From: Gammaproteobacteria bacterium
GTDB taxonomy: Bacteria; Pseudomonadota; Gammaproteobacteria; JAABTG01
Length of the DNA: 64,000 bases
Assembly (NCBI GenBank): GCA_017999615.1
Contig: JAGNLM010000002.1
Coordinates: forward strand, 185,633-249,632
Reading direction: 5' to 3'
Part shown: positions 30,527 to 64,000 of the stretch, one piece after another
How positions within the stretch are numbered: the first letter of the stretch is position 1
Layout of the letters: every line of letters begins with the position of its first letter
The notes under the pieces: generated by a model
The model's input: only the letters and a program-made list of their open reading frames with translations
What the model was told of the DNA's origin: nothing
Database searches by the model: none
Position numbers and translations under genes: made by a program

Positions 30527-31888
30527 GTGCACCTCCACATCCTGGGGATCTGCGGGACCTTCATGGGCGGCGTCGCGCTCCTCGCCCGCGCGCGCGGCCA
30601 CCGGGTAACCGGCTCGGACGCCAACGTGTACCCCCCCATGAGCGACCAGCTCGCCGCCGCGGGCATCGCGCTCACGGAGGGCTGGGACCCCGCGGCGCTC
30701 ACACCCGCGCCGGACGTGGTCGTGGTGGGCAACGCGCTCTCCCGGGGCAACCCCATGGTGGAGCACGTGCTCGACCAGGGCCTGCCCTACACCTCCGGCC
30801 CCCAGTGGCTCGCCGAGCAGGTCCTGCGCGAGCGCTGGGTGCTCGCCGTCGCCGGCACCCACGGCAAGACCACCACCAGCAGCATGCTCGCGCGGATCCT
30901 GGACGAGGCGGGGCTCGACCCCGGCTTCCTCATCGGGGGCGTGCCGGTCGACTTCGGGGTCTCGGCGCGCCTCGGTGGCGGGCGCTGCTTCGTGGTGGAG
31001 GCGGACGAGTACGACACCGCCTTTTTCGACAAGCGGTCCAAGTTCGTGCACTACCACCCGCGGACCGCGGTCCTGAACAACCTCGAGTACGATCACGCGG
31101 ACATCTTCCCGGATCTCGCCGCGATCGAGCGCCAGTTCCACCACCTCGTGCGGACCGTTCCGGGCACCGGGCGGATCATCCGCCCCGCCGGCGACGCCGC
31201 CCTCGACCGGGTGCTCGCCATGGGCTGCTGGACCGCGGTCGAGGAGACCGGCACCCCGCAGGGCTGGGAGGCGCACCTCCTGGACCCGGATGGCAGCCGG
31301 TTCGAGGTCCTCTGGGCCGGACAGCCAGTCGGGCGGGTGGCGTGGGACCTCCTCGGGGACCACAACGTCGCGAACGCGCTGTCGGCCATCGCCGCGGCCC
31401 GCCACGCCGGGGTGGACCCCGCGCGCGCCTGCGCCGCGCTCGCGGGCTTCCGCAACGTGCGCCGTCGGCTCGAGGCCCGGGGCCGGGTGAACGGCGTCAC
31501 CGTCTACGACGACTTCGCCCACCACCCCACGGCCATCCGGACCACACTCGAAGGCCTGCGCCGGCACGTGGGCGGCGCGCGGGTCGTCGCCGTCCTCGAG
31601 CCGCGCTCGAACACCATGCGCCTCGGCGTGCACCGCGACCAGCTCGCCCGGGCCCTCGGGGTCGCGGACCTCGTGGTGCTCTACGCCCCAGCGGACCTCG
31701 GCTGGGACGCCGGGGCGGCGATCGCCCCGCTCGGGGAGCGGGGGAGAGTCTTCGGGGATCTGGAGGCCATCGTCCAGCATCTGGTCGAGATCGCGCGTCC
31801 CGGGGACCACCTCGTCGTGATGAGCAACGGCGCCTTCGGGGGCCTGCACGGCAAGCTCCTCGAGGCCCTCGGCAAGAAGGGTCCGTGA
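30527..31888 (+). CDS. mpl: UDP-N-acetylmuramate:L-alanyl-gamma-D-glutamyl-meso-diaminopimelate ligase (murein peptide ligase)
   Basis: MHLHILGICGTFMGG N-terminus and a GTHGKTTTSSM P-loop, essentially as in E. coli Mpl. Confidence 0.9.
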   Translation: MHLHILGICGTFMGGVALLARARGHRVTGSDANVYPPMSDQLAAAGIALTEGWDPAALTPAPDVVVVGNALSRGNPMVEHVLDQGLPYTSGPQWLAEQVLRERWVLAVAGTHGKTTTSSMLARILDEAGLDPGFLIGGVPVDFGVSARLGGGRCFVVEADEYDTAFFDKRSKFVHYHPRTAVLNNLEYDHADIFPDLAAIERQFHHLVRTVPGTGRIIRPAGDAALDRVLAMGCWTAVEETGTPQGWEAHLLDPDGSRFEVLWAGQPVGRVAWDLLGDHNVANALSAIAAARHAGVDPARACAALAGFRNVRRRLEARGRVNGVTVYDDFAHHPTAIRTTLEGLRRHVGGARVVAVLEPRSNTMRLGVHRDQLARALGVADLVVLYAPADLGWDAGAAIAPLGERGRVFGDLEAIVQHLVEIARPGDHLVVMSNGAFGGLHGKLLEALGKKGP

Positions 31889-32559
31889 CCCGGCACCGGC
31901 ACCTCCGGGCCCGCGAGGTCCTCGACCGCCGCCAGCCCGACCTGACGGTGCTGCTCGACAACGTCCACAAGCCCCACAACTTCTCGGCGATCCTGCGGAC
32001 CTGCGACGCGGTGGGGGTGTTCGAGGCGCACGCCGTGTGGCCCTCGGCGCGGCTGCGGCCCCACCAGGGGCGGGCGGCCGGGACCGACCGCTGGGTGTAC
32101 GTGCGCACCCACCCCAGCGTGGAGGCCGCCATCGCCCACCTGAAGGCGAGCGGGCACGCCATCGTCGCGGCGCACCCCGCCGCGGGGGCGACCGACTTCC
32201 GCGCCATCGACTACACGCGCCCCACCGCGCTCCTGCTCGGGGCCGAGCTCCTGGGGGTGAGTGAGGAGGCCCTGGCCCTGGCCGACGCGACCGTCCTCAT
32301 CCCGCTCGCGGGCATGGTCCCGTCGCTCAACGTCTCGGTCGCCGCCGCCGTCCTCCTCTACGAGGCCCAGCGCCAGCGCGCCGCGGCCGGGCTCTACGAC
32401 GCGCCCCGCCTCGACCCCCGCCTGCGCCACGAGACCCTCGTGGAGTGGCTCCAGCCCGACGTGGCCGACTACTGCCGCAGGATGGGCCTGCCGTTCCCCG
32501 AGGTGGAGGAGGACGGCACCATCGCCCAGCAACCGCACCCGCCGCTCCTCCCGGGGTAG
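31885..32559 (+). CDS. trmH: tRNA (guanosine-2'-O)-methyltransferase, SpoU/TrmH family
   Basis: SPOUT motifs (LLDNVHKPHNFSAILRTCDAVGV, LLLGAELLGVS, IPLAGMVPSLNVSVAAAVLLYE); GTG start overlapping the mpl stop (GTGA). Confidence 0.85.
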   Translation: MTRHRHLRAREVLDRRQPDLTVLLDNVHKPHNFSAILRTCDAVGVFEAHAVWPSARLRPHQGRAAGTDRWVYVRTHPSVEAAIAHLKASGHAIVAAHPAAGATDFRAIDYTRPTALLLGAELLGVSEEALALADATVLIPLAGMVPSLNVSVAAAVLLYEAQRQRAAAGLYDAPRLDPRLRHETLVEWLQPDVADYCRRMGLPFPEVEEDGTIAQQPHPPLLPG

Positions 32560-32562
32560 GCG

Positions 32563-33582
32563 CGCGAGCTCGCGCACCGCCCGATAGAACCCCGGAAGGT
32601 CGCCCCCCTGCCGCTCGAGGAGCGCGCGGAAGGCCGGGACCAGCTCGTGATAGGTGGAGATCGCGGCGACGCGGGCGTTGTTCGGGACCTCCGAGCACCA
32701 GCGCCGGTAGCGCGCCCGCTCCCACTCGGTGAGGGCGAGCCGCCCACAGGCCGCGTGCAGCTCCGCGAACACCGCCGCCTTTTCGCGCCGCATGGCCTCG
32801 GGCGGGGCGCCGGAGGCGTAAATCCCCGCGAGCCGCCCCCGCGCGGCGAAGACCTCCCCCAGGAACGCCCGGCGCCGCTCCCGGGACTCATCGAACGCCC
32901 GGACCGCCTCCCCCGCGCCCGCAGCGGCGAGCCAGCGGCGCACCCCCTCCTCCTCCACGGTCACCGCGAAGGCCTCGTTGAAGGCGGTGTCGTCGCGCAC
33001 GTACACCACCTGGTGCGCCAACTCGTGGAAGATGAGCCCCGCGAGCTCGGCGTCCGGCCAGTCCACGACCCCGCTCGGCAGGGGGTCGTCGAACCAGCCG
33101 AGCGTCGAGTAGGCGGCCACGCCGCCGACGTGGACGTCCTGCCCCCCGGCCCGCAGCCCCTCGGCAAAGCGCAGTGCCTCGGCCTCCTCGAAGTAGCCCC
33201 GGTAGGCCACGCAGCCCGCCACGGGGAAACACCAGGACCGGGGCGTCAGGGAGAGCTCGGGGGTGGCGACGACGGCCCAGGCGACGTGGCGCCGGCCGAG
33301 GTCGGCGTACGTGCGGTAGCTGCCGTTGTCGGGCAGGCCGAGGGCCCCGCTCGCGAAGTCCCGCGCCGACGACGCATACTCGAGCCGGGCGCGGAGCCGC
33401 TGCGGGGTCGCCGGGTCGGAGACGAGCCAACCGATGGGCTCGCGTGCGGCCAGGAGAGCACCGTGCCCGGAGACTGAGCCAGCGTAGTAGGAGAGCTCGG
33501 CGCAGCCGCAGGCGAGGAGGCCGAGCAGGGCCACGCCCACGGGCCGGGACCACCCGCGGACGCGGCGGACGGGATGCGCCAA
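32563..33582 (-). CDS. predicted aminopeptidase (DUF2265 family) lipoprotein; 3' end unresolved
   Basis: Lipoprotein signal (LLGLLACGC) and HELAHQ zinc motif. Conserved region ends at about 32563, but the reading frame continues without a stop to 31681, antisense through trmH. Start assigned to TTG 33582 (a candidate immediately upstream of the signal peptide; the ORF tool offers an in-frame alternative at 33744). Confidence 0.45.
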
Positions 33583-33708
33583 CCCATCGGAGCCCACGGG
33601 CGAAGCTTGACCGAACGGGCAGGCGGGGACAACGGCCACCCTGGGCGCAGCTCGGCCGAGCCCCGGGGGAGCCTCGGCACGACGGCCCCCACCTGAGGGA
33701 AATCCCCG

Positions 33709-35658
33709 GTGGGCCGATACGTTTCGAAGGGCAGGACGGACCATGGGAGACCTGACACCGTGAACTGGCTGTGCGGATTCTTCGAGGGCGGGTCGGCGGA
33801 GGCCGCCCGGGGACGGCTCACCGCGATGGCCGCCGAGGCGCCACCGGCGCTCTCAGGCCTCGACTCGATCATCGACGGGGCCAGCGCCGTCACCGGACGC
33901 TGGACCGCGCAGGTCGACGGCGTCCTGGTCGCCCTCTCCGGATGGCCCTATTGGGCCGACGGCGCCCCCGCCGGGGCCCGCGCAGGGGCCACCCCCGGCG
34001 CCGGGGGGACGGTTGCGAGCCCTTCGGACCGCACGGCGCCCGAGGACCCCGCCGTCCGCGCCGCGAGACTCTATCGCCAGGAGGGCCCGCGCCTCCTCGA
34101 GCGCCTGCGCGGCGCCTTCACGCTCGCCGTCTACGACAGCGCCGCGCGCGCGGGGCTCCTCGCCATCGACCGCATCGGCCAGCACCACCTCTACTACGCC
34201 CGGGTCGGCGACGCCCTCGCCTTCGGCTCCTCGGCGGACGCCGTGGTCGCCTTCCCCGGCGTGCCGCGCGCGCTCTCCCACGACGCCCTCTTCCAGTACC
34301 TCTACTTCCACATGATCCCGAGCCCCGGCACCGTGTACGCCGGGGTCACCAAGCTCGAGGGCGCCCACTACCTCGCCTTCCGCCCGGGCTCGGTGGAGGT
34401 CCGGCCCTACTGGCGGCCCACCTTCCTCGAGACCTGGGACCGCCAGGGGCAGACGAGCCTCGACGCCTCGCTGCGGCAGGCCGGCGAGGAGCTGCTGGGG
34501 CACCTGCAGACCGACGTCGCCCGCTACTGCGACCTCCCCGCGGTCGGGGCGTTCCTCAGCGGCGGGCTCGACAGCTCCACCGTCGCCGGCCTCCTCGCCC
34601 GGGTCCGGCCCGGGGCGGCACACACCTATTCGGTCGGCTTCGCCGAAGAGCGCTACAACGAGCTGCCCTACGCGCACATCACCGCGGACTGGTTCCGCAC
34701 CACCCAGCACGACGTCATCGTCTCGCCCGACGACGCGCTCACCGCCATCACCACCGTCGCCGAGCACTGTGACGAGCCCTTCGGCAACTCCTCGGCCCTC
34801 GCCGCCTACTTCTGCGCCCGCGCGGCGCGCGCCGACGGCGTCACCCGCCTCATCGCGGGCGACGGCGGCGACGAGCTCTTCGCCGGCAACGAGCGCTACG
34901 GCAAGCAGATGGTCTTCGAGGCCTACTTCCGGCTGCCGGAGGCGCTGCGCCGGGGCCTCCTCGAGCCGCTGCTCCTCGGCGTCCCGCTCTTCGAGCGCGT
35001 CCCGCTCCTCAAGAAGGGCGTGAGCTACGTGCGCCAGGCCCTGGTCCGGCTTCCGGATCGCTTCGACACCTACAGCTATCTCAACCGCCACCCTCTGGCC
35101 GAGATCTTCCAGCCCGAGTTCCTGGCGAGCGTCGACGTCGAGGCGCCGTCCCGGGCCATGCACGCGCTCTGGGACGCGGTGCCCGGCGCCAGCACGGTGA
35201 ACCGCATGCTCTTCCTCGACTGGAAGAAGACCCTCCAGGACAACGACCTGGTCAAGGTCAACCGCATGTGCGAAGCGGCCGGCGTCGAGGTCGTCTACCC
35301 GATGCTCGACGACGCGGTGGTGGAGCTCTCCTGCCGGGTTCCGAGCCACCTCAAGCTCAAGCCCGGGCGGCTGCGCTACTTCTACAAGGAGGCGATGCGC
35401 GGGTTCCTGCCGCCCGAGACCCTGGCCAAGAAGAAGCACGGCTTCGGGCTGCCCTTCGCGGTCTGGATCACGAGCCACCGCGCGCTGCAGGAGATGGCCT
35501 ACGACAGCGTGCTCGCCCTGCGCAACCGGCCCTACGTCCGCGCCGATTTCCTCGAGCGGGCGATCGATCTGCACCGCAACGACACGCCCGTCTTCTACGG
35601 CGAGCTGCTGTGGATCCTGATGATGCTCGAGCAGTGGCTGCGCTCGCGGGGGCTCTAG
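33709..35658 (+). CDS. asparagine synthetase (glutamine-hydrolysing) family amidotransferase, exosortase/PEP-CTERM-associated type
   Basis: AsnB C-terminal synthetase domain (SGGLDSS PP-loop); N-terminal Ntn-type Cys in LCGFFEGG; start ambiguous (GTG 33709 with GAGGGA SD, GTG 33760 or CTG 33769). Confidence 0.8.
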   Translation: MGRYVSKGRTDHGRPDTVNWLCGFFEGGSAEAARGRLTAMAAEAPPALSGLDSIIDGASAVTGRWTAQVDGVLVALSGWPYWADGAPAGARAGATPGAGGTVASPSDRTAPEDPAVRAARLYRQEGPRLLERLRGAFTLAVYDSAARAGLLAIDRIGQHHLYYARVGDALAFGSSADAVVAFPGVPRALSHDALFQYLYFHMIPSPGTVYAGVTKLEGAHYLAFRPGSVEVRPYWRPTFLETWDRQGQTSLDASLRQAGEELLGHLQTDVARYCDLPAVGAFLSGGLDSSTVAGLLARVRPGAAHTYSVGFAEERYNELPYAHITADWFRTTQHDVIVSPDDALTAITTVAEHCDEPFGNSSALAAYFCARAARADGVTRLIAGDGGDELFAGNERYGKQMVFEAYFRLPEALRRGLLEPLLLGVPLFERVPLLKKGVSYVRQALVRLPDRFDTYSYLNRHPLAEIFQPEFLASVDVEAPSRAMHALWDAVPGASTVNRMLFLDWKKTLQDNDLVKVNRMCEAAGVEVVYPMLDDAVVELSCRVPSHLKLKPGRLRYFYKEAMRGFLPPETLAKKKHGFGLPFAVWITSHRALQEMAYDSVLALRNRPYVRADFLERAIDLHRNDTPVFYGELLWILMMLEQWLRSRGL

Positions 35659-35903: not shown

Positions 35904-36635
35904 GTGGATCACTGGAACCGATATCACTGGAACCGATTGGGTATTACCGCCGCGCTGGCCTGCGCGGTGCTGCTCACCCCCGCCCATGCGGCCACCGCCC
36001 GCCCCGTTCTCGACCCGGGCGTCACCACCCCGGACACCGGTTGCTCGGGCGCGTGCCTCGAGGGCGACGCCCTGAAGGTCGCCACGAGCGGAGTGGTCTG
36101 GGCGGAATTCCTCGGTGGCGACGCGGACTTTTTCGATCGCCTCTACCTGTACGTCGGCGGACAGGTCCAGCGGCCGGTCTTTCCGAACCACCCGAAGCCC
36201 TCGCAGACGGTGGCCCTCGGCCACTTCGACGCCGGCACCGAGATCTTCCTCCGGCTCGACGGGGACGGGACCCGGCACGATTTCCGCACGGGGCCCGTGG
36301 AGACGGAGTCGAGGGGCCAGGGCCGCGGAGACAAGCCTGCAGCGCCGCAGGTCTACGCGACGACCGTCGGCTTCGAGACCTCGCCGGACGGGAGGGGGAA
36401 GGACTTCGACGACTTCCGGGTCCGCCTGACCAATGTCGTCGACCTGGCCACCTTCGCCTCGCTGGACGGTGCCTCCGAGCAGGCCCCGCAGCGGGGGGCG
36501 GCAACCGCAGGGAACACGAACGCGGAGCCATCGCAGTCCGTCCCCGAGCCGGCTGCCCTCACGCTCCTCGCGGCCGGCCTCATCGCCCTGGCCGCCACCC
36601 GCCGGCGTGTCCGGCGTCCCTCACACTTCATGTAA
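35904..36635 (+). CDS. PEP-CTERM sorting-domain secreted protein
   Basis: AGGAG SD 6 nt before GTG; signal peptide; C-terminal VPEPAALTLLAAGLIALAATRRRVRR (PEP motif plus TM plus Arg cluster). Confidence 0.75.
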   Translation: MDHWNRYHWNRLGITAALACAVLLTPAHAATARPVLDPGVTTPDTGCSGACLEGDALKVATSGVVWAEFLGGDADFFDRLYLYVGGQVQRPVFPNHPKPSQTVALGHFDAGTEIFLRLDGDGTRHDFRTGPVETESRGQGRGDKPAAPQVYATTVGFETSPDGRGKDFDDFRVRLTNVVDLATFASLDGASEQAPQRGAATAGNTNAEPSQSVPEPAALTLLAAGLIALAATRRRVRRPSHFM

Positions 36636-36679: not shown

Positions 36680-36968
36680 CGGAACTGTCCACAATTCCTG
36701 TGGATAACTCTGTGGATCGTCTGTCGGAAAGCCTCTGTGAACCGCGTCACAATTCGCTTCGTTTCAGTTTGATGGATCCGCGACCATTTTCTCTAGAATT
36801 TCTTTTAATTCAGTAAGTTAATTCACAATTCCTGCAGTGTGATCACACGCCTCGCCGCGGCGGCCGCGCGCTTCCTGCGCGCCCGTCGCGGCGATTCCGG
36901 ACTGTGGATGAATCCCAATCCGGGGCTTGACAGTCAAGGCCTCCCCGTGGAGCGGATCGCCCCCCGGC

Positions 36969-39900
36969 TCACCCCGGGGGCGCCCCTTCCGGGGGCCGGC
37001 GCCGCCCCGGCAGCACACGGAACGGGCGCCAGAGGCCCCCGGTGCGAAACGCCTCCCACCCCCAGCGCAGCCAGCCGAGCAGCGCGAAGGCGAGCCAGAG
37101 CGCCCAGGCCAGCATCAGCGCCCGGTAGAGCCAGAGCGGCGCGCTCAACACCGACGCCCGGGGCAGCTCCGGACCGGACCGGTCCTGGTACCAGCGCAGC
37201 AGGTACCCGTTCGAGCCATTGCCCTCCACCTGCATCTCGGGCAGGCCCAGGAGGCCGTTGCGCACCGCGTCGAAGAGCAGGCCGAGCGCGCTCAGGGTCA
37301 GGAGCACGAGGCCGACCTGCATCAGGTCGAAGCGCGCACGGGGCAGGTCCGCCGGGGCGCGGGCCCGGGCCCCGAGGGCCAGGAGCCAGCCCACCACCAG
37401 CACGGCCGACCAGGCCGGCGCCTGGGTCAGGCCCACCCCGAGGAGCGCCCACTGCCAGGTCCGGAGGGGCGTCAGGCGCAAGCGCCCGAGCCCCGCGGCC
37501 GCCCCCAGGAAGACCAGCAGCACGCCCCAGAGGAGCACCGCCGGCCCGAGCGCCGGCCCGCCGGTGAGGAGCACCCAGCGGCTGCGCGGCACCTCCACGG
37601 TGACGACGGCGTTGACCAGCGGGTGCCCCACGTCGACCCGCGGGGTCTCGAAGCGGCTGCCCATCCCGTCCGGCGTGCGCCAGGCCACCGACATCCGCTG
37701 CTCGCCCGGGCGCACGGGCAGCACCACGCGGTCACCGTCCTGGCGCACCGGCTGGGCGACCCCGTCCACCGTCACGGAGCGGAGCTCCGCGCCTGCGGGC
37801 AGGCGCACCACCGTCTGCCCGCCCTGGCTGCTGCGCACCACGAGCCCCAGGTCGGCGTCGGTCGAGCGCTGCCCCGGCACCACCTTGAGCGCCGCCCGGT
37901 CGATGGTCAGGGTCGGGCCGGGCACCCCCTCGGGGCGCGAGACCGCGAGCTCCAGGCGCTCGCCTGGCCAGGGCCGCCACTCGGGCAGCCAGCGCTCCCC
38001 CACCGGGCGGTGCACGGGGGCGATCCCCGCCGGCTCCACGTGCCAGGTGGGTCCGGCGTCGAGACGCCAGGTCTCCGTCCAGGCGGTCGTCACGGGCGCC
38101 TCCAGCACCACCCGGTCCGCCTTCGCGAGCGTCGACGACCACCCGAGCTCCCGGTCGTTGGGGCCGAGGCTCACGGGCACGCGGGCGTTCTCCACCCGCA
38201 CGCCCGCGCTGGTCACCGCCTCCCCGGCGAGGAGGGGGACCTCCACGACCAGCCCTGCGCCGGTCGGCGAGAGGCGCACCACCCGCGTGTCCACCTGCCA
38301 CTCGAGCCCGAGCCGCAGGGTCCGCTCGACCCGCAGCAGCGGCGGGAGCGCGGTGGGCGCCAGCGCGTCCGCCGCACCCTCGGTCGCGCGCTCGCGCACC
38401 AGGCGGACCACCCCCTCGGGCTGCCCGTCCGGCCCGAGGCCGTCCACCCGCCAGCCCTCGGCCCGCACCTCCACCCGCCGCGGACGCAGGGGGAGCGTCA
38501 GCTCGAGCCCGGCGCGGGCGGCGGAGAGCGCCCCCTCGAGCACGATCCGGTGCCCGCCCGGGCCGACCCGGGTCCAGAGCACGCCCGCTTCGTCCCGGGC
38601 CAGAGCCGGCGCGGCCCGCCCGTCCACCAGCACCTGCCGCGGCACCCAGCGGGTCCCCCCGCCCGGGAGCGGCACCGCCACGTCGGCGAGCGCCAGGACC
38701 TCGAGGTCGAGGCGCAGGGCATCACCCGCGATCTCCAGCCCCATGCGCGGGGCCTCGGCACAGCGGGGCGCGCACTCGGGCGGCGCGAGCAGGCGGACCC
38801 GCAGGTCCTCGAGGAGCTTCGGCGGCGGGAACTCCGCCCGGGCCTCGGGCGCGAGCGCCAGGCCCACGGCCAGCAGCGCCACGAGGGAGCCCACCGGGAG
38901 GGCCACGGAGCCTGCGAGGGCCCCGGAGGGTGCAACGGAGGCCGAGGTCCCCGCGGAAGCGGGCGCGCCGCCGGAGACGGACTGCCCACCCGGGGGCGTC
39001 GCCGGCCTTGCGCGAAGCCCTCCCCGCGCCGGCCGGTCCGGCCAGCCGAGCCGCCCCGCGAGCGCCACCAGCAGGAGCGCCACCAGCAGGTGCCAGAGGA
39101 GGCTCCCGGCGGGCGGCACCAGCCAGAGCCGGATCTCCCCTCCCCGCTCCACCGGCCCGCTGAAACCGAGCCGCGCCCGGTCCCAGTTCCAGGCGGGAAG
39201 CCCGGGGCCGGTCTGGATGGCGGCCTTCGGGTCGTAGCCCTCGAGCGCGCGCTTCAGGGGCAGGGGTGCGGAGGCAGCCGCCACCGCGCCTGCAGCCGCC
39301 CGCAGACGCGCCGACTGGGGCGCCTTCGCCGCGGGGGCGACGGCCTCCTCCAGGACTTCGGCCGGCTCCATCATCAGGGCGACGTCGGACTCGGCCTCCT
39401 CCCGCGCCTGGACCGGCGCCTCGTGGACCACCTGCCAGGGCCGCTCGAGCACGGGGAAGAGGGCGATGCGGACCTGGGCGACGACGAACGGGATCGTCAG
39501 CACCGCGAGCCCGGCGAGGGCCGCCCAGCGCAGGAAGCCAACCGCGGAGCGCAGGCGCCCCTCGGGCAGCACCCGCAGCAGCGCCACCGCCGCCAGCAGG
39601 TAGAGCCAGGGCGAGAGCGGCATCCCCGGCTCGTGGTACCCGAGCCCGAGGGCCGCGAGCGCGAGCAGGCCCCAACCCCAGCCCCAGAGCTTGCCCACCG
39701 CGGCGCTCACCACGAGCAGCAGGAAGAGGTCGAAGAGCGTCCAGCGGTAGAGCCAGGCCTCGGGCGCCTGGTCCACGCCCCCCACGGCGAAGAGCCGCCA
39801 GCCGGGCGGAAGGTGCAGCGTCGCCCCCACCCGCTGGAACCCCTCGGCCCAGCCGAGCGACGGCAGGCGGGAGACGTTCCCCTCGATCCGGCCCTCGGCC

Positions 39901-41165
39901 GTGAGGTCGAGCCGCCCGCCCCGCACCTCGACCCCCTCGCGCGCGGCGCCGGGCAACCGGGTGATGAGCTGGTCGCGCCCGTCCGCCACGACCCGTCCGA
40001 GGTGCAGGGAGGGCTCGGCCTCGAGCCGCCAGCCGCGGGTCACGGTGCCCGCGATGCGGTCCCGGACCGTCGCGCCCCCGCCGTCGAAGTCGAGCCAGAG
40101 GGTTCGCTCCAGGGTGAGGCGGTTCGGGTCGGGCTCAGGGTCGCCGCGCCGGCGCTCCACCAGCTCGAGCCGGTCCCCGGGCCGCGCCCGGTAGGCCGGC
40201 AGCCCCTGCCAGTCGCCGGGCAGGGAGGTCTGCCGGGGGTCCAGGGCCTCGAGCCCCCGCGGCTCGACCACGCGCAGGGTCGGCCGGGCGTCGAGCACCC
40301 AGACCTCCTCGGCGGGCCAGGGGGCCTCGGCCACCGGGCGGACCAGACCCGCCACCGGGCCGGGCAGCCGGTGCGTCACCTGGACCGACCAGCGCCCCGG
40401 GCGCACCTGCACCCGCAGCCGGCCGTCGGCCTCGAGCCGGGCCGGCAGGGGGCCTTCCAGCGCCATGGGGATGGCGTCGGCCGGGGGCAGGGGCCCGAGG
40501 AGCAGTTCTCGCGGGTCTCCGGCCACCTCCAGCTCGACCCGGGTCACGACCTGGAACGGCACCTCGTCCACCAGGCGCCGGAAGACGCGGACCTGCAGCC
40601 CGTCGTCACCCTTGCCCGTGGGGCGCTCGCGCGCGAGCCAGAGCCGCCCGTCGGGCTCCACCTCAGGCACCTCCCGGGCCACCCCCTCGAAGGTGAGGCG
40701 GACCAATCCCGCGTCCCGGGGCAGCTGCAGGGCCTCGGGCATCCGCGCCCACGCGAAGGCCCCGGTGATCCGGTGCGTGCCCGCGCCGAGCCGGACCGCG
40801 GGGGCGCCGTCACGCTCCACCACCGCGACGGGGGCGCCGTCGGCCTCGGCGCCCTGGGGCCAGTGGCGCGCCGAGCCCGGCAGGGTCACCCAGGCCTCGG
40901 CAAAGGTCTCCACGACCTGCTCGAAGGTCCCGCCCTGCGGGCCGAGGTCGAGCGCGAGGCTCGAAGGCCACACGCAGCGCCGGGTCTCGGCGCCCTGGAC
41001 CCGCGGGCAGTCCCGGTCCTCGTGCCCGTGGAGGACCCACGGCACCCAGGCCTTCAGGGGATCCGGGACCGCCTCCGGCGCGAGCGGCGCCCCGAGCGCA
41101 CCCGACCCAGCCGCCACGAGCAGCAGCGCCACGACCCAACGGTGCCATGTCCCCGCGCGATTCAT
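36969..41165 (-). CDS. very large (1398 aa) internally duplicated polytopic membrane protein of unknown function
   Basis: GGAGG SD 9 nt before ATG 41165 and a signal peptide. Two homologous periplasmic modules of about 450-600 aa are each followed by a TM cluster. The upstream 542 codons of the listed ORF are intergenic or antisense to the ABC gene and are excluded. Confidence 0.65.
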   Translation of the reverse strand: MNRAGTWHRWVVALLLVAAGSGALGAPLAPEAVPDPLKAWVPWVLHGHEDRDCPRVQGAETRRCVWPSSLALDLGPQGGTFEQVVETFAEAWVTLPGSARHWPQGAEADGAPVAVVERDGAPAVRLGAGTHRITGAFAWARMPEALQLPRDAGLVRLTFEGVAREVPEVEPDGRLWLARERPTGKGDDGLQVRVFRRLVDEVPFQVVTRVELEVAGDPRELLLGPLPPADAIPMALEGPLPARLEADGRLRVQVRPGRWSVQVTHRLPGPVAGLVRPVAEAPWPAEEVWVLDARPTLRVVEPRGLEALDPRQTSLPGDWQGLPAYRARPGDRLELVERRRGDPEPDPNRLTLERTLWLDFDGGGATVRDRIAGTVTRGWRLEAEPSLHLGRVVADGRDQLITRLPGAAREGVEVRGGRLDLTAEGRIEGNVSRLPSLGWAEGFQRVGATLHLPPGWRLFAVGGVDQAPEAWLYRWTLFDLFLLLVVSAAVGKLWGWGWGLLALAALGLGYHEPGMPLSPWLYLLAAVALLRVLPEGRLRSAVGFLRWAALAGLAVLTIPFVVAQVRIALFPVLERPWQVVHEAPVQAREEAESDVALMMEPAEVLEEAVAPAAKAPQSARLRAAAGAVAAASAPLPLKRALEGYDPKAAIQTGPGLPAWNWDRARLGFSGPVERGGEIRLWLVPPAGSLLWHLLVALLLVALAGRLGWPDRPARGGLRARPATPPGGQSVSGGAPASAGTSASVAPSGALAGSVALPVGSLVALLAVGLALAPEARAEFPPPKLLEDLRVRLLAPPECAPRCAEAPRMGLEIAGDALRLDLEVLALADVAVPLPGGGTRWVPRQVLVDGRAAPALARDEAGVLWTRVGPGGHRIVLEGALSAARAGLELTLPLRPRRVEVRAEGWRVDGLGPDGQPEGVVRLVRERATEGAADALAPTALPPLLRVERTLRLGLEWQVDTRVVRLSPTGAGLVVEVPLLAGEAVTSAGVRVENARVPVSLGPNDRELGWSSTLAKADRVVLEAPVTTAWTETWRLDAGPTWHVEPAGIAPVHRPVGERWLPEWRPWPGERLELAVSRPEGVPGPTLTIDRAALKVVPGQRSTDADLGLVVRSSQGGQTVVRLPAGAELRSVTVDGVAQPVRQDGDRVVLPVRPGEQRMSVAWRTPDGMGSRFETPRVDVGHPLVNAVVTVEVPRSRWVLLTGGPALGPAVLLWGVLLVFLGAAAGLGRLRLTPLRTWQWALLGVGLTQAPAWSAVLVVGWLLALGARARAPADLPRARFDLMQVGLVLLTLSALGLLFDAVRNGLLGLPEMQVEGNGSNGYLLRWYQDRSGPELPRASVLSAPLWLYRALMLAWALWLAFALLGWLRWGWEAFRTGGLWRPFRVLPGRRRPPEGAPPG

Positions 41166-41211
41166 GCCTGCCACCTCCGGGACCGCAGCCGCGGCCCGCT
41201 TTTTCGTGAAC

Positions 41212-41277
41212 CGCAGAGACGCAGAGACACAGAGGATGATCAAAATTTCTGTCCTCTGCGCCTCTGCGTCTTCGCGG
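41212..41277. other. long imperfect hairpin in the ABC-exporter / large-membrane-protein intergenic spacer
   Basis: gacgcagagacacagagga ... tcctctgcgcctctgcgtc, about 19-bp stem with a 15-nt AT-rich loop; contains a tandem gcagagac unit. Confidence 0.4.
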
Positions 41278-41293
41278 TGAATCCCCCTGCACC

Positions 41294-43123
41294 TCACCCC
41301 TGCTGCCGACCGTACAGCCGGCTGTAGAGCCCGCCATTCCCGATCAGCGTCTCGTGGGCGCCTTCCTCGATGATCTTCCCCGACTCGAACACGTACACCC
41401 GGTCGGCCTGGCGGACCGCCGAGAGCCGGTGGGCCACGATGAGCGTGGTCCGCCCGGCGAGGAACTCCCGCAGGGCGTCGTGCAGGCGCCCCTCGGTCTC
41501 GGCGTCGAGCGCCGAGGTCGCCTCGTCGAGGATGACCACGCTGGGGTTCGCGAGCACCATCCGGGCGACCGCCAGGCGCTGGCGCTGCCCGCCCGAGAGG
41601 CGCACGCCCTGGCGCCCGACCACGGTGTCGAGGCCGCTCGCGAGCGTCTTCACGTCCGCCGCGAGCTGGGCGACCTCGAGGGCCTTCCACACCGCCCCGT
41701 CGGGCACCTCGCGCCCGAGGGTCACGTTGCTGCGCACGGTGTCGTTGAAGAGCGCCGGGTGCTGCAGGACGGTCGCCACGTGCTCGCGGACCACGTCGAG
41801 CCCGATGGAGGTGATGGGCACGCCGCCGTAGGCGAGCGTCCCGCACTCCGGGGGGTAGAGCCCCAGGAGCACTTGGACCAGGGTCGACTTGCCGCCGCCG
41901 CTCGCGCCCACCAGCGCGACCTTCTCCCCCGGGGCGATGACGAGCGAGAGGTGGTCCAGCACGAGCGGGCCGCCGGCGTAGCGAAAGCACACGTCCCGCA
42001 CCTCCACCCCGACCGTCGGCCGGCCGGCGAAGGGGTCCTCGACGTGGGGGTAGCGCGGCTCCTGTTCCAGGGCGAGGAGCCGGTTGATGCGCCCGAGCGC
42101 GGCATTCGCGCTGAAGTAGGAGTACTGGATCCCCAGCACCTCCTGCACCGGACCCATCATGAACCAGAGGTAGCCGAACACCGCCATCATCCCGCCGACC
42201 GTCAGGTCCGAGAACGCCACCAGCAGCATGCTGACCCCCCGGAACACCTCGAAGCCGGTGAGGAAGGTCAGGAACGACAGCCGGTTCGCGGCGTCGCTGC
42301 GCCAGGCGTAGCGCCCGGCGTTGTCGCGGACCTCGCGCGCCCGCTGCATCACCCGCCCGAGGTAGTGGCCCTCGCGATTGGCGGCGCGGACCTGCTGGAT
42401 CGCGTCGAGGGTCTCGGTGAGGGCCTGCTGGAACACCTCGAAGGCCTGGTTCTCCCGGCGCTTGAGCTCCTTCACCCGCTTGCCCAGCGCAATGGTGAGG
42501 TAGACCACGAAGGGGTTCGTGAACAGGATGAAGAGCGCGAGAGGCCAGTGCATCCAGAGGAGCACCGCGGCGACGCCCACGAGCGAGAGCACCGCCACCA
42601 GGAACTTGCCCACCGAGCTCGCGATGAACTGGTCGAGCGCCTCCATGTCGGTGACGAAGTGCGAGGCCACCGCGCCGCTGCCGAGCGATTCGTACTCCGC
42701 CATCGACACCCGCTCGAGCCGCCCCAGCAGGTCCCGGCGCATGCGGTAGGTGGCGTCCTTGGCGATGGTCGTGAACTCCCGCGTCTGCCACACGCCGAGC
42801 GCGGTCGAGCCCGCCCGCAGGGCGATGGTCACCAGCATCATCACGCCGATGTAGAGCGCAGGGCCGTGCCAGGCCGCCGGGAAGATGCGGTCGAGCACGC
42901 CGACGAGCCAGCCGGGGCGCCCCAGCAGCACCTCGTCCACCAGGAGCGGCATCAGGAGCGGGATAGGCACCGAGACCAGCGCCCCGGCAAGCGCGATCAG
43001 GTTCGCGGTGACGAGCTCCCGGCGGTGCGCGAGCGCCACCGTGAGGAGCGTGCGCCAGGTGTAGCGGTCGGGTGCGGGCGGTGACGCGCCGCCCCCCCGC
43101 GACTCCCTCGGCTGGTCTGACAC
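41294..43123 (-). CDS. ABC exporter, fused permease/ATPase (MsbA-like type I exporter)
   Basis: Six-TM N-terminal domain; Walker A GASGGGKST; signature LSGGQRQR; Walker B ILDEATSALD; H-loop. Confidence 0.9.
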   Translation of the reverse strand: MSDQPRESRGGGASPPAPDRYTWRTLLTVALAHRRELVTANLIALAGALVSVPIPLLMPLLVDEVLLGRPGWLVGVLDRIFPAAWHGPALYIGVMMLVTIALRAGSTALGVWQTREFTTIAKDATYRMRRDLLGRLERVSMAEYESLGSGAVASHFVTDMEALDQFIASSVGKFLVAVLSLVGVAAVLLWMHWPLALFILFTNPFVVYLTIALGKRVKELKRRENQAFEVFQQALTETLDAIQQVRAANREGHYLGRVMQRAREVRDNAGRYAWRSDAANRLSFLTFLTGFEVFRGVSMLLVAFSDLTVGGMMAVFGYLWFMMGPVQEVLGIQYSYFSANAALGRINRLLALEQEPRYPHVEDPFAGRPTVGVEVRDVCFRYAGGPLVLDHLSLVIAPGEKVALVGASGGGKSTLVQVLLGLYPPECGTLAYGGVPITSIGLDVVREHVATVLQHPALFNDTVRSNVTLGREVPDGAVWKALEVAQLAADVKTLASGLDTVVGRQGVRLSGGQRQRLAVARMVLANPSVVILDEATSALDAETEGRLHDALREFLAGRTTLIVAHRLSAVRQADRVYVFESGKIIEEGAHETLIGNGGLYSRLYGRQQG

Positions 43124-43562: not shown

Positions 43563-44063
43563 ATGGCAGTCATGAAAGCGAAGGACGAGAGTTCGACCCC
43601 TGTGGGCACCTCTCCCACGGCGGCTGACGGACCCACCACGGAAATTCGCGACGGGACAGACCGCCATCGGCGCCGCCTGATTCGGGGCGCGTCTGCCCTG
43701 CCGATGCTGTTAACCCTGCGGAGCAAGGGCCTGGCGGCGCAGAGTTGCACGGGGGCCCGGTATGAGCAGGACAAGAACGTATATCCACCAAACAATGCGT
43801 TTACGCTAGGCGAAAATGATGTTGCCCTAAAGAGTCTGGAGCGCTGTCAGGTAGGCGGTCTGACCGATGACCACGAAAAAATCTACCGTGGCACTGAAGT
43901 AGCGCTTGGAACCGACTGCTGGAACGCAAAAGTGACCGCCAACGGCGAGACGATTACCTGTGACGGAACCAACAACCCCGACAAGGGATACTACTGCTGT
44001 AACGTTGAGATTGCTGTCGTCAGTGGCGCGGCGTGGGCCTCGATCGTAGAGAGAGGACCCTGA
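43563..44063 (+). CDS. Cys-rich secreted protein, lower-GC, candidate substrate of the downstream PqqD/kinase/nucleotidyltransferase genes
   Basis: 167 aa; hydrophilic N-terminal region, then an RHRRRLIRGASALPMLLTL signal-like segment; 8 Cys including a CC pair; GC visibly lower than neighbours. Confidence 0.5.
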   Translation: MAVMKAKDESSTPVGTSPTAADGPTTEIRDGTDRHRRRLIRGASALPMLLTLRSKGLAAQSCTGARYEQDKNVYPPNNAFTLGENDVALKSLERCQVGGLTDDHEKIYRGTEVALGTDCWNAKVTANGETITCDGTNNPDKGYYCCNVEIAVVSGAAWASIVERGP

Positions 44064-44116
44064 TCCGTTCCAAATTACCTGCAGCAACTGTTCCTGAGTT
44101 ATGTGCTGAAAGTCTT

Positions 44117-44428
44117 GTGACATCGGATGCGGCTGTAGCTCCCCGAGACCACGTGCAGCAAGCGCAGCGCCACCCCCTGATGTGGTTCGACTGGCCGGAC
44201 GGCCATGCCGTTTATCAGCGCAGTTCTGGGGAAACCCATTTCCTGAACGACATCGGAGGCCCACTCCTTCGCTGCCTTTCCGAGGAGGAGGCAGACAACA
44301 CAACGGTCTGGCGCTGTGTTGAGAAGGTCTTGGGAGAACCAAGGACCGACGCCCTGTCCGCTCAGGTCAGGCCACTGCTAGAGCGCTTCGACGAACTGGG
44401 ACTTGTCAGAAGAACTGCCCCCCGCTGA
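44117..44428 (+). CDS. PqqD-family protein (RRE-like peptide-binding domain; HPr-rel-A system type)
   Basis: About 85-100-aa protein with PqqD-like composition (WFDWPDGHAVYQRSSGETHFLNDIGGPLLRCL); overlaps the downstream kinase gene by 26 nt; alternative start ATG 44180. Confidence 0.5.
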   Translation: MTSDAAVAPRDHVQQAQRHPLMWFDWPDGHAVYQRSSGETHFLNDIGGPLLRCLSEEEADNTTVWRCVEKVLGEPRTDALSAQVRPLLERFDELGLVRRTAPR

Positions 44429-45353
44429 TTTGCCTTCCACGTTCTCCGGCTGGCCACCCGGTCGTTTGCACGAGCAGTTGGGCCACGCTGGGCTCGTGGC
44501 CAGGATGGGGCCGTTCGCCATCCGCCTCCGTGTCCCCTTCGCGCCTCTCGTCGACTGGCTGCAACAGCTCTACGCCGACTACCCGGTCCTGGATGACGAG
44601 GCCCTCGTGGACCTGCACGTGGGTCTCGGCCCCCCGAGTCCCCTGAGGCGCTGGGTCAAACCGACCGTTCGCTTCACCATCGACGGCCGGTCACCCTTTC
44701 CCGACAGTCCAGCAAACCACGCCCCCCCCACGTTGGAGTGGGGCATCAACTGGGGTATCGCCACCCGCGCGAACCACCTGCTGATGCTGCACTGCGCCGC
44801 GATCGAGCGGGACGGGCGGGCGATGCTCTTCCCGGCCTGGCCGGGGCACGGCAAGTCGACGCTCTGCACCGCGCTCGTCCACTCCGGCTGGCGGCTCCTC
44901 TCGGACGAGTTCGGGCTGGTGCGCCCCGAGGACGGCGCTATCCTTCCGATCCCGCGGCTCATCCCGTTGAAGAACGAGTCGATCGAGGTGATCCGGAGCT
45001 TCGCCCCCCAGGCCTTCATCGGCCCTTCGTTCTACGGCACCCGCAAGGGCACCGTGGCCCACGTGCGCCCGCCGGCGGAGAGCGTGGAGCGCCAGGACGA
45101 GGTGGCGCGGCCGGGGTGGCTCGTCTTTCCCCGCTGGGTCAAAGACGCGCCGCTCAAGCTGGAGCCCATGCCGAAGGCGCAGTCCTTCCTGATGGTCGCG
45201 ACCAACGCCTTCAACTACGAGGTCCTCGGCGAGACTGCCTTCCGGCTCGTGGGCGACATGGTCCGGACCTGCGAGTGCTTCTCGCTGACCTACTCCGATC
45301 TCGACGAGGCGGTGACCGCGCTGGACCGGCTCACCCGCGGCGCCCATGGGTGA
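44403..45353 (+). CDS. HprK-related kinase A (HPr kinase/phosphorylase C-terminal-domain homolog)
   Basis: P-loop GHGKSTL preceded by LHCAA, as in the HprK catalytic domain; lacks the HprK N-terminal domain. Confidence 0.75.
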   Translation: MSEELPPADLPSTFSGWPPGRLHEQLGHAGLVARMGPFAIRLRVPFAPLVDWLQQLYADYPVLDDEALVDLHVGLGPPSPLRRWVKPTVRFTIDGRSPFPDSPANHAPPTLEWGINWGIATRANHLLMLHCAAIERDGRAMLFPAWPGHGKSTLCTALVHSGWRLLSDEFGLVRPEDGAILPIPRLIPLKNESIEVIRSFAPQAFIGPSFYGTRKGTVAHVRPPAESVERQDEVARPGWLVFPRWVKDAPLKLEPMPKAQSFLMVATNAFNYEVLGETAFRLVGDMVRTCECFSLTYSDLDEAVTALDRLTRGAHG

Positions 45354-46536
45354 GGCGAGCGCCCAGGCCGCGCGGGCCCGCCGGCTGCTGCTGGGCGCGC
45401 TGAAGGCGCCCGGGGATCTGCCTGCGCTCCCCCTCGCGGACTGGGACCTGCTCCTGCGGGTCGCGCGCCGCGCCCGGCTGCTCGGGCGCATCGAGGCCGA
45501 CCTCGCGGCGGCGGACCTGCTGGGCGCCATCCCGGAGCGGGCCGGCAATCACCTGCGGGCCGCGCGCAACGTCGTCGCCCACCGCCACACCCTGACCACC
45601 TGGGAGGTGGACCGGATCCTCTGGGGGCTCGAGGGCGTGGACGTCCGGCCGGTCCTCCTGAAGGGCGTCGCCTACGTGATGGCCGGGCTGCCGCCCGCGC
45701 GCGGAAGGCTCTTCGCCGACGTGGATCTGATGGTGCCCGAGGCCCGCATCGAGGAGGTCGAGAAGACCCTCCTGGGACGGGGCTGGTTCCGCAAGGCGCT
45801 CGACCCCTACGACGAGCGCTACTACCGGGTCTGGAGCCACGAGATCCCGCCGCTCCGCCACCGGGAGCGCGAGACTGAGATCGACATCCACCACACGATC
45901 CTGCCCCGCACGAGCCGGCTGAAGCCGGACCCGGCGCTGCTCTTCGCGGCCGCCCGACCGCTCCCGGCGCTCGCCGCCCGTTCGGGGGCAAGCCCTGACC
46001 CGCTTCTGCCGGCCGACCCCCGGCTCCAGGTGCTCGCCCCCGCGGACATGGTCCTGCACTCCCTGGTCCACCTCTTCCTGGAGGGCGACCCCCAGGACGG
46101 GCTGCGTCTGCGGGACCTGGTGGACGCCCACGACCTGCTCCGGCACTTCGGCGCGGAACCCGACTTCTGGGGCAGCCTCGTGCCCCGGGCCCGGGAGCTG
46201 GGCCTGACCCGGCCCCTGTACTACGGGCTGCGCTACGCCCGGCGGCTCCTCGGCGCCGACGTGCCCCACGCGGTGCGGGCCGCGGCGAAGAAGGCCGCAC
46301 CGCCCGCGCCCGTTCGGGCCCTGATGGACCGCCTCGTCCCGCTCGCCCTCTTCCCCGAGCACCCCGATTTCCCCCGCCGGCGCGCGGCCCGCGCCCGGCT
46401 CCTCATCTACGTCCGCTCCCACTGGCTGCGCATGCCGCCGCTGCTCCTGGCGCGGCACCTGGGGTACAAGGCGTGGCTGCGGGTGCGGCGGGTCCCACGC
46501 AAGGTGGAGCTGACGCAGCTCGACCTGAAACAGTAG
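45346..46536 (+). CDS. nucleotidyltransferase-family protein (NTP_transf_5-like), coupled to the HprK-related kinase
   Basis: 395 aa; putative nucleotidyltransferase catalytic acidic pair FADVDLMVP; 8-nt overlap with the upstream kinase gene. Confidence 0.65.
   Translation: MGEASAQAARARRLLLGALKAPGDLPALPLADWDLLLRVARRARLLGRIEADLAAADLLGAIPERAGNHLRAARNVVAHRHTLTTWEVDRILWGLEGVDVRPVLLKGVAYVMAGLPPARGRLFADVDLMVPEARIEEVEKTLLGRGWFRKALDPYDERYYRVWSHEIPPLRHRERETEIDIHHTILPRTSRLKPDPALLFAAARPLPALAARSGASPDPLLPADPRLQVLAPADMVLHSLVHLFLEGDPQDGLRLRDLVDAHDLLRHFGAEPDFWGSLVPRARELGLTRPLYYGLRYARRLLGADVPHAVRAAAKKAAPPAPVRALMDRLVPLALFPEHPDFPRRRAARARLLIYVRSHWLRMPPLLLARHLGYKAWLRVRRVPRKVELTQLDLKQ

Positions 46537-63647: not shown

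Positions 63648-64000
<353 letters not shown>

Follow-up and report, generated by a model that had tools for sequence, protein, structure and literature searches.

Ost1/ribophorin I, a non-catalytic subunit of oligosaccharyltransferase (OST), carries a signal peptide, a non-cytoplasmic ectodomain of stacked beta-sandwiches, and a C-terminal membrane anchor, and it has no catalytic motif. OST1 has been reported from eukaryotes and from TACK and Asgard archaea only (PMC11417166), and for the non-catalytic OST subunits, hidden Markov model searches have turned up no convincing homologues in prokaryotes (PMC4973528). Here, we report a computational analysis of a gene for a 1398-amino-acid (aa) duplicated membrane protein (36969..41165, minus strand, stop included) whose two modules each have Ost1 as their best predicted fold match. 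The gene lies in a 64,000-nucleotide (nt) stretch of a Gammaproteobacteria bacterium assembly (GCA_017999615.1, contig JAGNLM010000002.1, positions 185,633 to 249,632), referred to below as the window. The protein appears to belong to a large, unannotated family outside the known kinds, which means only that every membership test failed; a more distant connection to a known superfamily may yet come to light.

Parts of this plan recur in other described systems. Transporters of the RND/SecDF type are likewise tandem duplications in which each half starts with a hydrophobic segment that is followed by a large periplasmic domain and five further helices, with a conserved acidic residue in the membrane. 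The present protein differs from them in its all-beta ectodomains, in having some short helices, and in a beta-hairpin between helices 4 and 5; the models ACR_tran, MMPL, SecD_SecF, and Patched were not matched at an E value of ≤10 in any of 36 family members (the scope of all family scans below), nor was there a fold match. MacB/FtsX-type (type VII) ABC permeases, including their duplicated forms, share an order in which one helix is followed by a large periplasmic domain and then by a cluster of helices at the C-terminus, and here, too, an ABC ATPase gene stands next door. However, FtsX (PF02687) was not matched, the neighboring ABC protein is a complete exporter with a six-helix permease domain of its own, and the adjacency is not conserved. 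DUF2339/DUF3999 pairs, which a preliminary description of this DNA had put forward as possible relatives, are also large bacterial membrane/periplasmic proteins of unknown function; neither Pfam model was matched, and the proposed relationship is not supported.

Gene model and family

The window is 72 to 78% GC around the locus and, because of this, holds long open reading frames (ORFs) in several frames. The longest frame listed for the gene (1940 aa; 36969..42791, minus strand) overlaps an ABC exporter gene (41294..43123, minus strand) in a different frame. Over the 542 codons upstream of Met543 (MNRAGTWHRW), GC by codon position was 0.95/0.70/0.46, and a third-position value of 0.46 combined with a first-position value of 0.95 shows that the frame is wrong there. 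From the ATG at 41165 to the stop at 36969, the values were 0.83/0.55/0.96, which is the typical coding signature in this 72 to 78% GC genome. A GGAGG ribosome-binding site, read directly in the sequence (41174..41178, minus strand), stands 8 nt upstream of this ATG, and the N-termini of 36 homologues line up at its Met in the family alignment. The preliminary description had dismissed the 5′ extension as spurious and had placed the start of a 1398-aa protein at ATG 41165 behind a GGAGG Shine-Dalgarno site, and both points are borne out by the codon-position GC and the aligned N-termini.

The chance that this frame is no real gene, being either a GC-driven open frame or a frameshifted pseudogene, is negligible. 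High-GC DNA does yield long ORFs in several frames, one of which (36927..41327, plus strand) overlaps the gene and gives an Arg/Pro/Gly-rich nonsense translation, but the third-position GC of 0.96, thousands of full-length homologues (40 to 95% identity over 97 to 100% of the length), and confident AlphaFold2 (AF2) models refute such a reading.

More than 2266 homologues of ~1360 aa, counted as clusters at 90% identity, form an unnamed family in which nearly all members are 1330 to 1410 aa long. A search with module 2 (defined below) against representative clusters at 50% identity returned 2525 with an E value of ≤1e-3 and 1454 with an E value of ≤1e-30. The family is present in at least 579 species representatives from several phyla, and its carriers include Methylococcales, Chromatiales, Thiotrichales/Beggiatoaceae, Burkholderiales, Zetaproteobacteria, Polyangiales/Myxococcales, Desulfobacterota, Nitrospinales, Acidobacteria, and one Elusimicrobia metagenome-assembled genome. 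Among cultured organisms, it is carried by Methylomonas sp. TEB, Methylotetracoccus oryzae, Zobellella aerophila, Oceanimonas, Leucothrix pacifica, and Chromatium weissei. Full length and 40 to 50% identity are kept across several phyla; mean column identity over 36 sequences was 56%, with many invariant Trp, Pro, and Gly residues. Several polar residues that lie within the membrane or close to it are invariant, namely, Asp479, His511/Glu512, Arg531, Gln1248, Asn1316, and Asp1328. That a ~1360-residue protein holds 40 to 50% identity in Gammaproteobacteria, Myxococcota, Desulfobacterota, Nitrospinota, and Acidobacteria points to strong selection.

Despite some 2500 clusters at 50% identity, the family has no Pfam or NCBIfam model and no solved relative, and its members are named just “hypothetical protein”; a description would fill an annotation gap in methanotrophs, sulfur oxidizers, and myxobacteria. 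The 1398-aa protein had no match in Pfam-A, NCBIfam, or PADLOC, and no nucleotide-binding motif was recognized in it. Nothing consistent emerged from Pfam and NCBIfam across the 36 members, where scattered single matches in one or two members (Alkyl_sulf_C, GspH, glyco_rpt_poly, and others; E ≤ 10) were rejected as noise. The family profile had 0 matches among PDB sequences at an E value of ≤10, and six unusually long members (1494 to 1593 aa) carried no added Pfam domain. Literature searches on ScmC/PqqD, HPr-rel-A, bacterial ribophorin/Ost1, and “ribophorin-like” found no paper that describes this family. Two NCBI names occur on family members, “YkgJ family cysteine cluster protein” (P0008) and “lysostaphin resistance A-like protein” (P0040); NCBIfam scans of the same sequences did not support them, and they look like misannotations.

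Duplicated modules

Residues 1 to 700 were compared with residues 700 to 1398 by BLASTP, which aligned residues 63 to 354 (repeat copy 1; 40104..40979, minus strand, as are all protein features that follow) with residues 801 to 1090 (repeat copy 2; 37896..38765) at 31.7% identity over 309 columns (E = 2.5e-11). Half-profiles built from the 36 family members and compared with hhalign matched residues 63 to 339 with 801 to 1077 (96% probability; E = 2.7e-9), and the helical regions of both halves gave a weak collinear match (E = 0.01). AF2 was run per module with 120 homologues each and reached mean predicted local distance difference test (pLDDT) scores of 84.5 for module 1 and 88.5 for module 2. 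The order of elements was the same in both modules, namely, an N-terminal helix, ~34 strands (approximately three beta-sandwiches), four helices, and a beta-hairpin, with a long helix at the end. The secondary-structure strings of both halves run parallel from start to end, which argues that the duplication spans whole modules, beyond the stretch visible to BLAST.

The two homologous modules of the preliminary description, each a periplasmic domain followed by a helix cluster, therefore stand on a significant self-alignment and on a shared AF2 plan. Its dimensions needed correction: AF2 gives ectodomains of ~430 to 440 aa each instead of 450 to 600 aa and five membrane helices per module instead of three to four, with a beta-hairpin before the last. 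Two of the four clustered helices in each module are short, so that two of the five measure only 11 to 16 residues. To that description we add that both copies begin with a signal-peptide-like segment.

In module 1, the all-beta ectodomain (aa 30 to 470; 39756..41078) comprises approximately three sandwiches, with pLDDT mostly above 90 and conserved Cys53/Cys64. It is followed by a helical membrane region (aa 475 to 569; 39459..39743) with AF2 helices at 477 to 494, 496 to 509, 517 to 532, and 537 to 569, the invariant Asp479, and a conserved WHEPG loop (His511/Glu512). A variable, poorly conserved loop of low confidence (aa 570 to 660; 39186..39458; pLDDT 40 to 60) separates this region from the beta-hairpin and last helix (aa 661 to 707; 39045..39185), where AF2 places strands at 662 to 667 and 677 to 683 and a helix at 685 to 707, and where the motif TGPGLPxWxW...NGPV is conserved with invariant residues. 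In module 2, an all-beta ectodomain (aa 778 to 1205; 37551..38834) with pLDDT mostly above 90 and conserved Cys798/Cys802 leads into the second helical membrane region with its beta-hairpin (aa 1206 to 1374; 37044..37550). The protein is most highly conserved in this region, whose motifs are GPAVLFWG, GLSQxP, LLGLPEMQIAGNGS, and YRLLMLAWALWLAFALLxWLRWGW.

Topology and an internal signal-peptide-like segment

The N-terminal signal peptide (approximately aa 1 to 27; 41085..41165) was proposed in the preliminary description and is supported by the family alignment, in which a basic n-region, a hydrophobic core of 12 to 15 aa, and small residues at −3/−1 are followed by xPL; AF2 places a helix at residues 4 to 20. 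A second segment of the same kind (aa 754 to 777; 38835..38906) precedes module 2 and ends in a conserved AxA, with a predicted signal peptidase I site at Ala777/Glu778. Both the N-terminus and this segment are type I signal-peptide-like, with a basic n-region, a 12- to 15-residue core, a helix-breaking Pro, and AxA. At the internal site, 34 of the 36 members have Ala at −1, at least 33 have a small residue at −3, 24 have Pro at −6, 29 have Asp or Glu at +1, and every member has Pro at +3; over 121 sequences, Ala777 is conserved in at least 90% and Pro780 is invariant. One-module relatives (see below) start with this same segment, which serves as their signal peptide. The conservation of the internal AxA, together with the start of the one-module proteins at the same place, makes cleavage at Ala777/Glu778 a reasonable possibility, and the fused precursor may be cut there by signal peptidase I to yield two chains.

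Between the modules lies a basic, variable linker (aa 708 to 753; 38907..39044), predicted to be cytoplasmic, and the protein ends in an Arg-rich tail, also predicted to be cytoplasmic (aa 1375 to 1398, plus the stop codon; 36969..37043). Mean net charges over the 36 members were +1.5 for the N-terminal tip, +2.4 for the linker, +2.2 for the loop after the first module 2 helix, and +3.8 for the C-terminal tail, while the ectodomains and the WHEPG loop were acidic on average. This charge distribution fits a layout in which both ectodomains and both hairpins are periplasmic and the linker and C-terminus are cytoplasmic. The Cys pairs conserved at 53/64 and 798/802 are consistent with a place in the periplasm. 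The predicted cytoplasmic part consists of the variable linker and the short tail only and contains no sizeable conserved stretch. The charge pattern and the AF2 helices would also permit a 6+6 layout of the RND/SecDF kind, with large loops after helices 1 and 7; however, segments 1 and 7 carry canonical signal peptidase sites and short hydrophobic cores.

One-module relatives

The preliminary description had raised the question of whether relatives encode the two modules as separate genes. Some do encode one module alone, as a solitary gene; no module 1 gene stands beside it. One instance, P0362 (649 aa), is a complete gene in mid-contig in two contigs of a 39% GC organism, has its own signal peptide, and is 39% identical to module 2, and no module 1 sequence was found near it. 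Although the search of representatives with module 2 was saturated by full-length members, short candidates including P0362 still surfaced, and the closest relatives of P0362 are many proteins of 626 to 650 aa, among them proteins of Candidatus Magnetoglobus multicellularis and Candidatus Magnetomorum. Solitary one-module genes were found in three separate contexts (L091, 4090-6039; L093, 7001-8881; and L094, 4662-6545), where they encode proteins of 626 to 649 aa that are 39 to 44% identical to module 2 and have their own signal peptides; one of them is in Candidatus Magnetoglobus multicellularis. At these loci, there was no module 1 gene nearby, no ABC exporter, and no conserved neighbor. 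Such solitary genes indicate that a single module is viable alone, presumably as a homodimer, and the ~1360-aa form is a fused pair of modules whose halves have diverged to ~30% identity.

Comparison of predicted folds

Foldseek searches of the PDB gave Ost1 as the best match for ectodomain 1 (6ezn_A; E = 1.6e-7) and Ost1/ribophorin I as the best matches for module 2 (6c26_1, E = 7e-9; 8pn9_E, E = 7e-8), so that the same protein tops the list for both modules independently. The next matches were integrin alpha legs, PIG-T, and then the N-terminal beta-domain of M1 aminopeptidases/leukotriene A4 (LTA4) hydrolase. With Ost1, the modules share the signal peptide, the stacked beta-sandwich ectodomain on the non-cytoplasmic side, the C-terminal anchor, and the lack of a catalytic motif. 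They depart from it in an anchor of five helices and a beta-hairpin, against one helix in Ost1, and in their tandem duplication; the Ost1 model PF04597 was not matched, PDB sequence-profile matches numbered 0, and no STT3/PglB-type partner is encoded nearby, nor is any neighbor conserved in the 84 loci described below. A literature search on “ribophorin-like” and similar terms returned nothing bacterial. With the N-terminal beta-domain of M1 zinc aminopeptidases/LTA4 hydrolase, ~150 to 175 residues per module (alignments of ~165 columns) superpose at a root-mean-square deviation (rmsd) of 4 to 7 Å (Foldseek probability, 1.00). The 1398-aa protein, unlike these enzymes, has no thermolysin-like catalytic domain, HExxH, or GxMEN, and it is membrane anchored and periplasmic.

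We treat the match to Ost1 as a lead, which by itself does not prove homology. Should the likeness reflect common ancestry, a non-catalytic subunit of oligosaccharyltransferase would gain in this family its first relative from bacteria. The family offers two testable ideas, that of a possible bacterial counterpart of the Ost1/ribophorin ectodomain and that of internal signal peptidase processing in a bacterial membrane protein.

Proposed role and alternatives

As a tentative explanation, we propose that the 1398-aa protein, a member of a large unannotated family, stands alone in the cell envelope as a pseudo-dimeric binding or scaffold protein that faces the periplasm and has no catalytic activity. 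We put the statement as a whole at somewhat below an even chance and its functional part, taken alone, much lower. Tandem duplication and fusion of a single module gave rise to the protein. In this module, a signal peptide precedes a ~430-aa all-beta ectodomain of stacked sandwiches that holds a disulfide-type Cys pair, and four membrane helices are then followed by a short beta-hairpin and a last helix. Its working unit would be the module pair, a pseudo-heterodimer when fused and presumably a homodimer in the one-module form; signal peptidase I may cut the precursor into two chains. As a membrane-anchored platform facing the periplasm, it would bind or scaffold an envelope polymer or polypeptide and would be neither an enzyme nor an ATP-driven exporter. 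No catalytic motif was recognizable, as the preliminary description had said, and no enzyme family in Pfam or NCBIfam was matched by the protein or the 36 members; together with the missing nucleotide-binding motif and the likeness of the ectodomains to the non-catalytic Ost1 and M1 N-domain, this makes a binding or scaffolding role the most likely one. The scaffold role is our preferred reading by analogy, in that Ost1 and the M1 N-domain hold substrates for a catalytic partner. Several points weigh against this explanation. The Foldseek TM-scores are low (0.12 to 0.29), and the rmsd over long alignments is 15 to 25 Å; the likeness to Ost1 may be that of generic stacked beta-sandwiches, as integrin legs and PIG-T match as well. 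The membrane helices are the best-conserved part and hold invariant polar residues, and such helices would suit a transporter, a channel, or an enzyme embedded in the membrane no less well than a passive anchor. The functional part of the proposal is, moreover, something that we only infer.

The main rivals are a transporter or transducer coupled to the proton motive force and a periplasmic enzyme with an unrecognized active site. A transporter or mechanical transducer of RND/SecDF-like layout, with a membrane-embedded acidic residue and a duplicated core, would account for a plan that occurs twice, in which a hydrophobic segment precedes a large periplasmic domain and five helices, for the invariant Asp479 in the first helix after ectodomain 1 and the other invariant polar helix residues, and for a helical region that is the most conserved part while no ATPase partner is conserved. 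We nevertheless consider it unlikely, because no transporter model of any kind was matched, RND chains were missing from the top PDB fold matches, both ectodomains are all-beta, the hydrophobic segment that opens each half resembles a cleavable signal peptide and not a stable helix, and two of the five helices are just 11 to 16 residues long. An enzyme (a hydrolase, peptidase, or transferase that is membrane bound and periplasmic and has an envelope polymer as its substrate) seems rather unlikely to us. Strong conservation speaks for it, with invariant Trp, Asp, Glu, Arg, and His residues in the ectodomains and at the membrane surface (e.g., WHEPG, RRGDPEPEPD, and EWRPWPGE), as does the likeness in fold to the M1 peptidase domain lining the substrate pocket; Trp-rich beta-sandwiches are, in addition, common among carbohydrate-binding proteins. 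Set against this are the failure to find a known catalytic motif or an enzyme-family match and the non-catalytic nature of the M1 and Ost1 domains that were matched. Quite unlikely, in our estimate, is a more specific variant in which the two-module precursor, cut at the internal AxA, would become an envelope machine, of a class not recognized before in bacteria, made of two related chains with Ost1/ribophorin-like ectodomains and five-helix cores with invariant polar residues, assembled as a heterodimer (a homodimer in one-module species). The binding or scaffold protein remains our preferred explanation, and the one further alternative, which draws on the genes next door, is weighed with them below.

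Genomic context

Directly upstream of the 1398-aa gene and on the same strand lies the ABC exporter gene (41294..43123, minus strand), which encodes a fused permease and ATPase of 609 aa (ABC_membrane and ABC_tran; Pfam, NCBIfam). Its best NCBIfam match was MsbA, at 331 bits versus a cut-off of 602 bits, and it scored far below every equivalog cut-off. On the other side, a PEP-CTERM protein gene (35904..36635, plus strand) stands between the 1398-aa gene and an AsnB-family gene (33709..35658, plus strand); the latter scored 273 bits versus the 817-bit cut-off of the XrtA/PEP-CTERM amidotransferase (TIGR03108). Transcribed divergently from the ABC exporter is a complete HPr-rel-A cassette (44033-46536, plus strand) with a PqqD-family peptide chaperone (TIGR04353; 55 bits versus a cut-off of 35), an HprK-related kinase A (TIGR04352; 390 bits versus 200), and an NTP_transf_5 nucleotidyltransferase; the chaperone and the kinase occupy 44033..45353. 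No literature on the HPr-rel-A system was found. The neighbors that the preliminary description had named, an MsbA-like exporter, PEP-CTERM and AsnB genes, and a cluster resembling HPr-rel-A, are confirmed as adjacent.

The context was sampled at 84 distant loci from many phyla, with up to 10 kb taken on each side and neighbors clustered within 6 kb on each side. None of the 84 had an MsbA-like exporter within 10 kb, and tblastn with the ABC protein gave just unrelated ATPase domains several kilobases off. All-against-all clustering of the flanking ORFs found no family at more than 14 of the 84 loci; the largest was a generic histidine kinase, and the remaining clusters were generic kinases or ABC ATPases or reflected synteny within Methylococcales. 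Gene tables of three distant homologues showed unrelated neighbors, with no ABC exporter and no HPr-rel-A genes. One distant relative (L001, 8775-9893) has a same-strand gene for squalene/phytoene synthase 108 bp upstream, an arrangement seen only once.

Conversely, orthologues of the ABC exporter at 67 to 72% identity (Sulfuricella and others) stand solo in housekeeping surroundings at the three loci examined, with neither a gene of the 1398-aa type nor HPr-rel-A genes alongside. The order suf operon, HPr-rel-A cassette (on the opposite strand), ABC gene, and large gene is kept in three relatives only (L085, L086, and L087, at 93%, 67%, and 58% identity), and among the loci examined that carry the large gene, the HPr-rel-A cassette occurs only in the window and these close relatives. 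Their downstream sides differ, the PEP-CTERM gene being absent from L085 and the AsnB-family gene from L086 and L087. In L085, the large gene and the AsnB-family gene are 418 bp apart with no PEP-CTERM gene between them. Its absence from a locus at 93% identity marks the PEP-CTERM gene as a recent insertion or deletion. Outside the window's lineage, no linkage to an exosortase, a PEP-CTERM gene, or an XrtA-type amidotransferase was found at related loci. Since the ABC-to-large-gene order is limited to close relatives, within a block that includes the unrelated suf operon, it points to shared ancestry and not to a functional operon, and the adjacency of the ABC, PEP-CTERM, AsnB, and HPr-rel-A genes appears to be lineage-level synteny without functional meaning.

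These data bear on the idea that the 1398-aa protein is an accessory of the upstream ABC exporter and that the pair exports an exopolymer, a PEP-CTERM cargo, or the peptide product of the HPr-rel-A cassette. We judge this very improbable and the weakest of the real alternatives. The two genes do share a strand and a 128-bp spacer in which no promoter-like site was found, their order is kept down to 58% identity, and PEP-CTERM, AsnB-family, and HPr-rel-A genes lie nearby. Yet the distant loci have neither the exporter nor any other conserved neighbor, the one-module relatives also lack an ABC exporter, the close orthologues of the exporter stand alone, the conserved block takes in the suf operon while the PEP-CTERM/AsnB side is not conserved, and two strong hairpins lie between the genes. 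The role in envelope or exopolymer export that the preliminary description had drawn from these neighbors is not upheld by the 84 distant loci, by the solitary ABC orthologues, or by the unstable downstream side. For the ABC protein itself, a function as the peptide exporter of the HPr-rel-A cassette was considered and dropped, because its close orthologues elsewhere have no such neighbors. The 1398-aa gene should not be annotated within ABC exporter, PEP-CTERM, or HPr-rel-A systems.

Spacer hairpins

The long hairpin with an AT-rich loop that had been noticed in the spacer was recovered by folding the minus-strand RNA and refined to 41217..41271 (minus strand), with a 20-bp stem and a 15-nt A/U-rich loop; a second, GC-rich hairpin follows it directly (41189..41216, minus strand). 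The 128-bp spacer as a whole folds at −69.9 kcal/mol (z = −5.6), and none of 200 shuffles was as stable. The stem of the long hairpin needs G-U pairs and forms best in the minus-strand RNA, i.e., it is strand specific. Neither a T-tract (U-tract in RNA) nor a sigma-70-like promoter was found in the spacer, and without a T-tract the long hairpin is no canonical intrinsic terminator. It is built from GCAGAGG-type repeats, and similar hairpins stand in the equivalent spacers of L085 (~9890-9960) and L086 (~9860-9940). It had no Rfam match at the gathering score, and a repetitive extragenic palindromic (REP)-like identity was rejected because it is present as a single copy in the window. We infer only that it may act as a factor-dependent terminator, as a stabilizing 3′ structure of the ABC mRNA, or as a processing site.

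Other features of the window

A 687-aa ORF (31681-33744, minus strand) has an Aminopep domain (PF10023) at residues 85 to 404; its counterpart in L085 is 434 aa long, the 687-aa form overlaps the start of the AsnB-family gene, and this ORF is probably overextended. An rRNA operon (60044-64000, minus strand) comprises 5S (60044-60159), 23S (60312-63196), tRNA-Ala (63406-63481), tRNA-Ile (63497-63573), and 16S, of which only the 3′ 353 nt lie within the window before its end; this operon accounts for the drop in GC to 56%.

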